Below, in pieces: positions 2,891 to 3,612 of a DNA stretch of 20,766 bases. The stretch lies in the IMG/VR virus record IMGVR_UViG_2600254997_000022; one strand, given 5' to 3'. Position 1 is the first letter of the stretch. Each line of letters opens with the position of its first letter. The notes under the pieces were generated by a model. It saw nothing but the letters and a program-made list of their open reading frames with translations. It had not been told where the DNA came from and made no database searches. The position numbers and the translations under genes were made by a program. The DNA is from a virus (lineage: Duplodnaviria; Heunggongvirae; Uroviricota; Caudoviricetes).

Positions 2891-2916
2891 GCCCGGCGTA
2901 CCGGGCTTATTAGTTA
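2891..2916. terminator. GC-rich hairpin, possible bidirectional terminator
   Basis: GCCCGG-CGTA-CCGGGC followed by TTATTAGTTAATTT on the plus strand; overlaps the stop codon of the minus-strand lipoprotein gene. Confidence 0.4.
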
Positions 2917-3612
2917 ATTTGGTGCTTTAGGGTCAACATTAAAAGTTATATCACCTTCTGTATTTTTCCCGGCATAGCTAGCGGCTATTCTCGCCAACCC
3001 TTTGTAATCAGCAATTCCATCAGACTGTTGCGAGACGACTGAGCTACCAACTTTCCATAACATATTAATCTGCCTATTATTGAGATAAGCCTTGGCATCA
3101 AACGACTGGAGTATCACCCCTGCGCCGTAGAACGTGTCCGTCACAGTTGTGTTATACGCGCCAGTAATTCCATAAGTAGGCGTATAAACTGTTGTTGCCG
3201 TTCCAGTGGTATTAGCTGTACCGTAGCCACCACCATAACTATTGAACGTGGTGTTCGAGTTTCCGTACGTTGTTGCTGAGCTCACACCAGTTTGCCCGTA
3301 TATTGGGATGGTTACATTACGAGTATTTGAAATGGCCCCGCTTCTCAAAAAGTTCAAGAGAATTACCTGGTCAGCCAATTTTTCATCTTTAACTTGTGTA
3401 TATCCTTGGCTTGATAAACTGGCGGCTACTACCGTAGCTATTTGAGTGTATTCAATCTGTTTGGTGTTCCAAAGTTCTTGGCTTGCGGGGATGATCAAGA
3501 ACTTCTTACCGACAGATTGCCCGGAGGATAAAGCATTGACCGTTACTAACGGTTTTTGTACGCATCCAGCCAATAATGACAGGGATAATATTAAAAGAAG
3601 ATTTTTAATCAT
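2914..3612 (-). CDS. predicted lipoprotein, 232 aa (moron-like, AT-rich)
   Basis: N-terminus MIKNLLLILSLSLLAGC is a signal peptide with lipobox LLAGC. AGGTGA RBS. Gly/Thr/Tyr/Asn-rich body. Appears lower in GC than its neighbours and has its own promoter region. Confidence 0.75.
   Translation of the reverse strand: MIKNLLLILSLSLLAGCVQKPLVTVNALSSGQSVGKKFLIIPASQELWNTKQIEYTQIATVVAASLSSQGYTQVKDEKLADQVILLNFLRSGAISNTRNVTIPIYGQTGVSSATTYGNSNTTFNSYGGGYGTANTTGTATTVYTPTYGITGAYNTTVTDTFYGAGVILQSFDAKAYLNNRQINMLWKVGSSVVSQQSDGIADYKGLARIAASYAGKNTEGDITFNVDPKAPN

Follow-up and report, generated by a model that had tools for sequence, protein, structure and literature searches.

TraT, the surface-exclusion lipoprotein of IncF plasmids (PDB 9e2v, 9fs5, and 9fsm), has been described as an LptE-like core with transmembrane helices plus a long hairpin from which the decamer's inner barrel is formed. 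SieA of phage P22, a ~19-kDa inner-membrane protein, blocks the gp20/gp16 conduit of incoming P22-like phages; sieA sits between homologs of genes 16 and 9 and is carried by only 22 of 66 P22-like phages, gp16 and gp20 must interact and have to form a compatible pair (as deduced from hybrid phages), and escape from SieA maps to both (Leavitt et al., PMC10883804). Cor (phages phi80, N15, and T1) and Llp (T5) are phage-encoded outer-membrane lipoproteins located near adsorption genes, active in superinfection exclusion, and each targeting one receptor (FhuA). To our knowledge, mechanistic detail on the envelope-level exclusion of short-tailed phages exists for P22 SieA, an inner-membrane protein, only. 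The gene studied here, located at 2914-3612 (minus strand) of the 20,766-nt IMG/VR virus record IMGVR_UViG_2600254997_000022 (the whole of this stretch is referred to as the window), encodes a predicted lipoprotein and belongs to an element resembling EcCIMP1, a 19,963-bp phage-inducible chromosomal island (PICI) mapped by Pick, Stadel and Raivio (PMC11773190); the gene product is tentatively read (probability about 0.4) as a ring-forming outer-membrane lipoprotein that excludes incoming phage at the envelope.

The lipoprotein gene and its product

The open reading frame (ORF) list and translation of the window gave exactly one intact ORF at 2914-3612 on the minus strand, running from ATG to TAA and encoding 232 amino acids; at 100% identity (tblastn), its product matched WP_000594596.1, which E. 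coli NGF1 and MP1 encode and which is annotated there as 'hypothetical protein'. The N-terminus MIKNLLLILSLSLLAGC consisted of a charged n-region with Lys, a Leu-rich hydrophobic core, and then the canonical lipobox L-A-G-C, and this signal peptide plus lipobox (residues 1 to 17, read directly from the sequence) occupied 3562-3612 (minus strand). The lipobox cysteine Cys17 (codon 3564-3562) was retained in at least 90% of 31 aligned homologs, and the +2 residue following it was Val (Val18), not Asp; the sequence matched the lipobox pattern [LVI][ASTVI][GAS]C with a residue other than Asp at +2, and this feature was conserved across the family. The lipobox signal peptide claimed in the original prediction, which had been made from the letters of this stretch, was thereby borne out. 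Since Val rather than Asp stands at +2, the established +2 rule would have the lipoprotein sorted to the outer membrane, via the Lol pathway. A Shine-Dalgarno sequence AGGTGAG was located at 3625-3619, 6 nt 5′ of the ATG. The ratio of nonsynonymous to synonymous substitution rates (dN/dS), taken against an ortholog of 89% identity, was 0.037, indicating strong purifying selection, and the adjoining ejection genes (see below) had higher values of 0.076 to 0.088. The lipoprotein gene is real, functional, and under constraint.

The gene had a guanine-plus-cytosine (GC) content of 42.5%, with the window at 48.1% and the adjoining gp16 fragments at 50.7%. The original prediction was right in calling the gene lower in GC than its surroundings, but the deviation was mild: 5.6 points under the window mean, corresponding to the 9th percentile of 699-bp windows (about -1.4 standard deviations), with the gene at 18544-19494 lying far lower at 35.8%. 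Upstream of the gene, an alignment delimited a conserved block at 3619-3672 (minus strand), which included the Shine-Dalgarno sequence, tandem GCTTACA copies (3672-3666 and 3662-3656), and what may be a CTTACA-15-GATAAT promoter; these 54 nt before the ATG were nearly invariant between the E. coli copies and those of other Enterobacteriaceae, and the distal spacer diverged. The promoter that the gene had been predicted to own did not stand out from background, the consensus scan giving three promoter-like sites (chance expectation, 3.0), one of them, a weak one, on the strand of the gene. The tandem GCTTACA-N3-GCTTACA (3656-3672, minus strand) could be a candidate regulator-binding site. Downstream of the gene, the terminator scan gave two overlapping GC-rich terminator-like hairpins 8 to 33 nt past the stop codon (2881-2906, minus strand), a number of such hairpins not above chance. 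The match to other PICI variants restarted ~70 nt past the hairpins, near 2812, and a module edge was therefore placed there.

Family membership and predicted fold

In Pfam, the product scored 14.2 bits (E 0.062) for DUF4136 (PF13590), under the gathering cut-off of 32.8, and 12.9 bits (E 0.09) for TraT (PF05818), under the cut-off of 31; it had no match in NCBIfam, a sequence search of the PDB with the family profile returned chance hits only, and the BFVD viral fold library gave nothing at E ≤ 0.001. Membership was reached through intermediates: a search of 5.8 billion proteins gave 37 relatives in Kluyvera, Pluralibacter, Serratia, Rouxiella, Vibrio, and metagenomes, distant homologs at E values of 1e-9 to 1e-22 carried PF13590, and 14 of the 31 alignment members matched DUF4136 (best 1.3e-15), giving transitive homology to DUF4136-positive proteins. 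The lipoprotein is a remote relative of DUF4136 whose core resembles those of LptE, PelC, TraT, and CsgG, so the earlier view that nothing assigns it to a known family no longer applies. We know of no DUF4136 member with a known function. An exhaustive profile search gave 3823 clusters (50% identity), of which 653 reached E ≤ 1e-30, and a motif-pattern search gave homologs in Proteobacteria of all classes, Verrucomicrobiota, Planctomycetota, Nitrospirota, Bacteroidota, Chlamydiota, Leptospira, and others; family members also came from sediment, groundwater, and marine bacteria.

The AlphaFold2 model (predicted local distance difference test [pLDDT] 86) had an alpha/beta core plus two antiparallel strands of 30 to 40 residues each (E94-124 and E132-172), which formed a long beta-hairpin (residues 94 to 172; 3097-3333, minus strand) rich in Thr, Ser, Gly, Tyr, and Asn. 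The same architecture was predicted for a DUF4136-positive homolog of 27% identity (pLDDT 86.8), and the model shared the fold of the DUF4136 member BT2437 (PDB 4f54). In the alignments, the hairpin region (residues ~100 to 160) was the best-conserved part of the family; the idea that the mid-section of the protein is disordered filler of low complexity was rejected, this part being the best-conserved one and confidently folded. Two invariant motifs were located within the hairpin: (i) P103-x-x-G-Q-T-G-V-S-S-x-T-T-Y-G117 (3262-3306, minus strand; alignments A1 and A3), in which P103, G106, T108, G109, and T115 were invariant, and Q107, V110, S111, S112, T114, and G117 were present in at least 90%, and (ii) T140-T-x-Y-x-P-T-Y-G-I-T-G151 (3160-3195, minus strand), in which T141, P145, Y147, G148, T150, and G151 were invariant. 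As modeled, the lipoprotein has the LptE/TraT-class fold with a family-defining long hairpin, and relative to BT2437 its subfamily was set apart by this hairpin with its GQTGVSS and PTYGITG motifs. Foldseek found the hairpin to resemble the stems of the beta-pore-forming toxins aerolysin, lysenin, CDTb, and anthrax protective antigen. Membrane-spanning barrels have a clear hydrophobic belt, whereas the hairpin was polar and had none, although most of its Tyr, Ile, Val, and Phe residues lay on one face; for this reason, a solvent-exposed barrel or collar seems likelier than a membrane pore.

Genomic contexts of the relatives

In the window, the lipoprotein gene was found 150 nt downstream of P22-type ejection genes (gp14-gp7-gp20-gp16) on the same strand, and all Enterobacteriaceae satellite copies examined had it after these four genes. 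In a P22-like prophage of Serratia ureilytica (coat, gp4, gp10, gp26, gp14, gp7, gp20, gp16, and tailspike), a 63% homolog was the sole gene between gp16 and the tailspike gene, i.e., the relative occupied the same slot as sieA, directly after gene 16 and before the tailspike gene. Further relatives were placed as follows: (i) after the last internal virion protein and ahead of the tailspike, almost without a gap, in T7/SP6-like temperate podoviruses, some of these 5′ internal virion proteins carrying endolysin domains; (ii) between gpK (NlpC/P60) and gpI/J in a Rouxiella lambda-like prophage; (iii) between the sheath region and the tape-measure region of a myovirus contig; (iv) between gpA and the portal gene gpQ (4989-5642 of the retrieved stretch) in a P2-like prophage of Photobacterium sp. 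Hal280; and (v) as cargo of a P4-like island and, next to a reverse transcriptase, of a Vibrio island. The gpA-gpQ hotspot of P2 houses tin and old. This interval is the main defense hotspot of P2 (PMC13586616). The DUF4136 named in a paper on the UG5 reverse transcriptase was considered as a link to the Vibrio neighbor and rejected, being there the internal connector of a fusion protein and no lipoprotein.

In Kosakonia (two loci; 5001-5693), a 63%-identical homolog stood alone directly after proA, without ejection genes, and may be the remnant of a decayed island. The proA site of Kosakonia corresponds to the thrW-side neighborhood where EcCIMP1 integrates in E. coli. No conserved partner gene was seen beside the more distant chromosomal copies. 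The gene was thus found between genes that are adjacent in relatives and was absent from most relatives, as is the rule for morons, and its slots differed by element (P22-like, T7-like, lambda-like, and P2-like prophages). It has been captured repeatedly into accessory or defense slots of at least five kinds of mobile element. Two points of the original prediction, namely the position next to an ejection operon and the status of accessory, moron-type cargo, accordingly stood.

The host element and its helper phage

Regions 925-5918 and 7230-18244 of the window were collinear with and 98 to 99% identical to E. coli MP1 (CP139039), and the lipoprotein gene, which in CP139039 occupies 3,569,631-3,570,329, fell within the mapped EcCIMP1 boundaries. 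The window differed from EcCIMP1 at the integrase end and at the far end, and the integration module had been swapped, the integrase at 19513-20766 being only ~28% identical to that of EcCIMP1. Judged from this match, the host element is a variant of EcCIMP1, and not the prophage that had originally been supposed; a prophage remnant was likewise rejected on the grounds of the collinear match to a mapped, mobilizable PICI, and the nature of the element accounts for its missing capsid and lysis genes. The lipoprotein gene was present in 76 of 5426 complete E. coli genomes (1.4%), always chromosomal and in a single copy, and ~460 further E. coli genomes matched 2700-2812 of the window only (113 bp beyond the hairpins). 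In one such genome, that of E. coli STW0522-31, the sister PICI (7351-9538) has a different ejection cassette, and in it an Abi-family gene plus a 129-amino-acid ORF replaced alpA_1 and the lipoprotein gene. The genomes sharing only the 113 bp, together with the cargo of the sister island, put the lipoprotein gene on the border of an exchangeable module within an accessory zone, and the zone between the ejection cassette and the PerC gene looks like an accessory or defense hotspot of this satellite lineage.

Excision, circularization, and transduction of EcCIMP1 occur only with the helper phage Kapi1, and EcCIMP1 plays a part in immunity to superinfection by Kapi1 in Kapi1 lysogens by a mechanism left unexplained (PMC11773190). 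PADLOC plus DefenseFinder scans of EcCIMP1 gave no known defense system, two accessory candidates (002 and 025) were proposed, the ejection genes were viewed only as possible packaging genes, and the lipoprotein gene was neither discussed in the paper nor mentioned in its supplements (PMC11773190); a literature search for WP_000594596 gave no papers.

Kapi1 is a Lederbergvirus (P22-like), and the lipoprotein gene was absent from it. The ejection proteins of the satellite and of Kapi1 (MT813197, 27948-32582) shared 82% (gp14), 58% (gp7), 26% (gp20), and 24% (gp16) identity. The satellite has no capsid yet carries a P22-type DNA-delivery conduit of its own. The gene 16-tailspike slot of Kapi1 (32628-33170) harbored two small opposite-strand ORFs with signal peptides, Kapi1_059 and Kapi1_060, which are possibly envelope-acting morons of the helper itself.

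Comparison with known systems and proposed function

The system that the lipoprotein is proposed to work most like, by analogy, is TraT: a mobile-element lipoprotein with the same core plus hairpin that would exclude a second DNA delivery. An LptE-like core with an extending hairpin was common to both, but the two additional transmembrane helices that form the alpha-helical barrel of TraT had no equivalent in the lipoprotein model, whose insertion was an all-beta hairpin, much longer than that of TraT and with different, invariant motifs; moreover, TraT is plasmid-borne, whereas the lipoprotein gene was chromosomal or phage-borne and never plasmid-borne. Of the two checks on the fold proposed along with the original prediction, structure prediction gave an LptE/TraT-class fold, whereas the hhalign comparison with F-plasmid TraT reached 87% probability only across 84 columns at the N-terminus, a stretch that takes in the signal peptide. 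Membership of the TraT family was rejected on the hidden Markov model (HMM) score, the missing transmembrane helices, and the plasmid context. PelC (12-mer), CsgG (9-mer), the flagellar LPHT-ring protein, and LptE had no sequence relationship to the lipoprotein, and no Pel, curli, flagellar, or Lpt partner genes were found near its gene. SieA and the lipoprotein were likened by slot and description; no relationship between the two is known, their sequences not being directly compared, and they differ in location, the lipoprotein being predicted to reside in the outer membrane. The analogy with Cor and Llp drawn in the original prediction fitted poorly: these proteins are 3 to 4 times smaller, the lipoprotein family is conserved far beyond FhuA-bearing hosts, and the best-conserved part of the protein stayed invariant all the way from Enterobacteria to Planctomycetes and Verrucomicrobia, which makes a receptor peculiar to one host an unlikely target. 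Membership of the Cor or Llp families was rejected (mature protein of 215 amino acids; no PHROGs family at E ≤ 0.1).

In the proposed mechanism, the lipoprotein would be anchored in the outer membrane through Cys17 as accessory cargo of the EcCIMP1-like island, at the edge of its swappable module; a polar Thr/Gly/Tyr-rich beta-hairpin of roughly 55 to 60 residues would project from the compact alpha/beta core; the lipoproteins would assemble into an outer-membrane ring in which the hairpins lie side by side as a beta-barrel collar; and this ring would hinder envelope penetration or DNA delivery (the ejection-protein conduit) by an incoming phage, with no single receptor masked. Ring assembly is suggested by analogy with TraT, CsgG, PelC, and flagellar rings, and topology and exclusion function are likewise proposed. 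Interference with the conduit is preferred to receptor masking because the conserved surface does not vary among phyla that have no receptor in common and because the gene occupies the slot of SieA, which targets the gp20/gp16 conduit. The lipoprotein gene is accordingly named as the prime candidate for the EcCIMP1-dependent superinfection immunity of Kapi1 lysogens; one may speculate that, when paired with a conduit of another type, an exclusion factor would leave the particles of the satellite itself unaffected. A wider version is doubtful as a whole: it would make the gene the first tractable representative of a large family that lacks characterization, and this family a set of TraT/CsgG-like giant-barrel rings that are assembled via the invariant long hairpin (~3,800 clusters at 50% identity across many diderm phyla) and repeatedly captured by phages and satellites as a generic 'envelope gate' against conduit assembly, the EcCIMP1 ring being paired with the satellite's own divergent gp20/gp16 and so sparing satellite particles.

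Several observations weigh against an exclusion function. EcCIMP1 alone gave non-lysogens no protection from Kapi1 (PMC11773190), which makes a simple constitutive block of Kapi1 by the lipoprotein unlikely. The absence from PHROGs was accompanied by that of any PADLOC-DB v2 model at E ≤ 0.01, and tblastn against 50,697 deposited phage genomes likewise gave no homolog. The gene directly adjoins the late gene before it, or overlaps with it, in some prophages, which points to late lytic expression rather than to expression from the lysogen. Strong purifying selection is unusual for an arms-race surface protein. The family is ancient and common in free-living bacteria, many of its copies lie among short unannotated ORFs, and its ancestral role may therefore be unrelated to phage.

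Among the rival explanations, the one given most weight, although still unlikely, is a function in the lytic cycle or in transfer that is linked to the ejection cassette: the lipoprotein would, for example, neutralize or guide the peptidoglycan-cutting gp16 with its SLT domain, shield the producing or newly transduced cell against envelope damage in the manner of Spackle, an inhibitor of a virion lysozyme, or help to breach the outer membrane at lysis. It would explain why the 5′ neighbor is repeatedly a wall-degrading or envelope-crossing virion protein (gp16 with SLT, an internal virion protein with an endolysin domain, or gpK with NlpC/P60), which the gene abuts or overlaps in T7-like prophages, why the gene was inherited along with the ejection cassette on capture by satellites, and why the hairpin is similar to pore-toxin stems. 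No such neighbor, however, accompanies the members in the P2 hotspot, in the islands (P4-like and Vibrio), or beside proA of Kosakonia, the prophages examined have lysis cassettes of their own, and the lipoprotein was intact and identical here despite a dead gp16 (see below), although the responsible insertion may be recent. Placed next, and improbable, is an ordinary DUF4136 envelope lipoprotein for polysaccharide handling or envelope structure, like LptE and PelC, that hitchhikes on the satellite and plays no phage role; this is a large family with a wide phylogenetic spread, the fold class is one that in LptE and PelC binds anionic glycans, and other DUF4136 genes occupy chromosomal operons, e.g., a Burkholderia two-component operon (PMC5192318), but a sporadic distribution (1.4% of E. 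coli genomes, for example), recurrence in the accessory slots of mobile elements of at least five unrelated types, and the lack of a conserved operon partner among the copies seen speak against it.

Receptor masking of the Cor/Llp kind, in which the lipoprotein would bind one outer-membrane protein from the periplasm, inactivate it as a receptor, and also spare progeny from debris, was rated lower. A predicted outer-membrane lipoprotein encoded beside adsorption or penetration genes, including directly before the tailspike gene, fits it, and llp of T5 reportedly adjoins its receptor-binding protein gene, an arrangement to which that of the lipoprotein can be likened. Set against this are the length of the mature protein (215 versus ~60 to 80 amino acids for Llp and Cor) and its missing PHROGs match, helpers and relatives that are tailspike podoviruses starting on O-antigen, hairpin motifs invariant across phyla without such a common receptor, and Kapi1 infection of non-lysogens that EcCIMP1 left unchanged. 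The least probable explanation is a host-fitness factor of the TraT/Bor/Iss type, i.e., a surface ring for serum resistance or conjugal surface exclusion that helps extraintestinal pathogenic or commensal E. coli hosts of the island and does not act on phage: the two helices anchoring TraT in the membrane are missing, the TraT HMM failed (12.9 bits versus 31) and the hhalign match includes the signal peptide, the gene was never found on plasmids in the 5426 complete E. coli genomes, and serum has no bearing on the sediment, groundwater, and marine bacteria that carry family members.

If the preferred reading, phage exclusion by an outer-membrane lipoprotein ring, is true, an outer-membrane and possibly ring-forming factor in the sieA slot would represent a second, structurally different solution to exclusion. 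The analysis supplies a concrete single-gene hypothesis for the published, unexplained EcCIMP1-dependent superinfection immunity and a first functional lead for a domain-of-unknown-function family with thousands of members. In this PICI lineage, ejection proteins and an accessory gene form an exchangeable module, a finding relevant to the way in which P22-like helpers are exploited by satellites. With no phage phenotype, the finding would shrink to an ordinary hypothetical lipoprotein on a satellite. A moron lipoprotein in itself would be no surprise to a specialist; it is the fold, the cross-phylum hairpin, the sieA slot, and a ready experimental system that make the hypothesis worthwhile and cheap.

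Neighboring genes in the window

The ejection genes were assigned through Pfam and PHROGs and lie on the minus strand: gp14-like (DUF2824) at 9785-10246, gp7-like (P22_gp7) at 9114-9791, gp20-like (Inj_translocase) at 7795-9114, and the gp16-like N-terminus with SLT domain at 7190-7804, which together made up the part of the cassette at 7190-10246. The remaining C-terminal two thirds of the gp16-like ejection protein (phrog_770) were found as a pseudogene at 3763-5918 (minus strand) with a frameshift near 4460-4716, compared to the intact 906-amino-acid gp16-like gene present in the NGF1 and MP1 copies. The gp16-like gene was broken by a 1.3-kb insertion sequence (IS) at 5919-7229 (plus strand), recognized as a gap in the alignment to MP1, with transposase ORFs at 5973-6299 and 6296-7187, and a reading of these ORFs would assign the insertion to the IS3 family. 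The orfB of the IS element was itself split into 6296-6880 and 6738-7187. Because of the IS insertion plus the separate frameshift, functional gp16 has probably been lost from this satellite copy.

Between the integrase and alpA, a 316-amino-acid ORF was located at 18544-19494 (minus strand); it had the lowest GC content in the window (35.8%; 28.7% at third codon positions), no Pfam or PADLOC match, and no counterpart in EcCIMP1, and it looks like another accessory or defense-type cargo gene. Downstream of the lipoprotein gene, a PerC-family regulator at 721-1008 (minus strand) and a second AlpA-family gene at 1658-1843 (plus strand; alpA_1 of the EcCIMP1 paper) were arranged as in EcCIMP1. 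An AntA/AntB-type antirepressor gene at 16957-17790 (minus strand) gave a partial match to the PADLOC candidate system PDC-S22 (E 1e-10).

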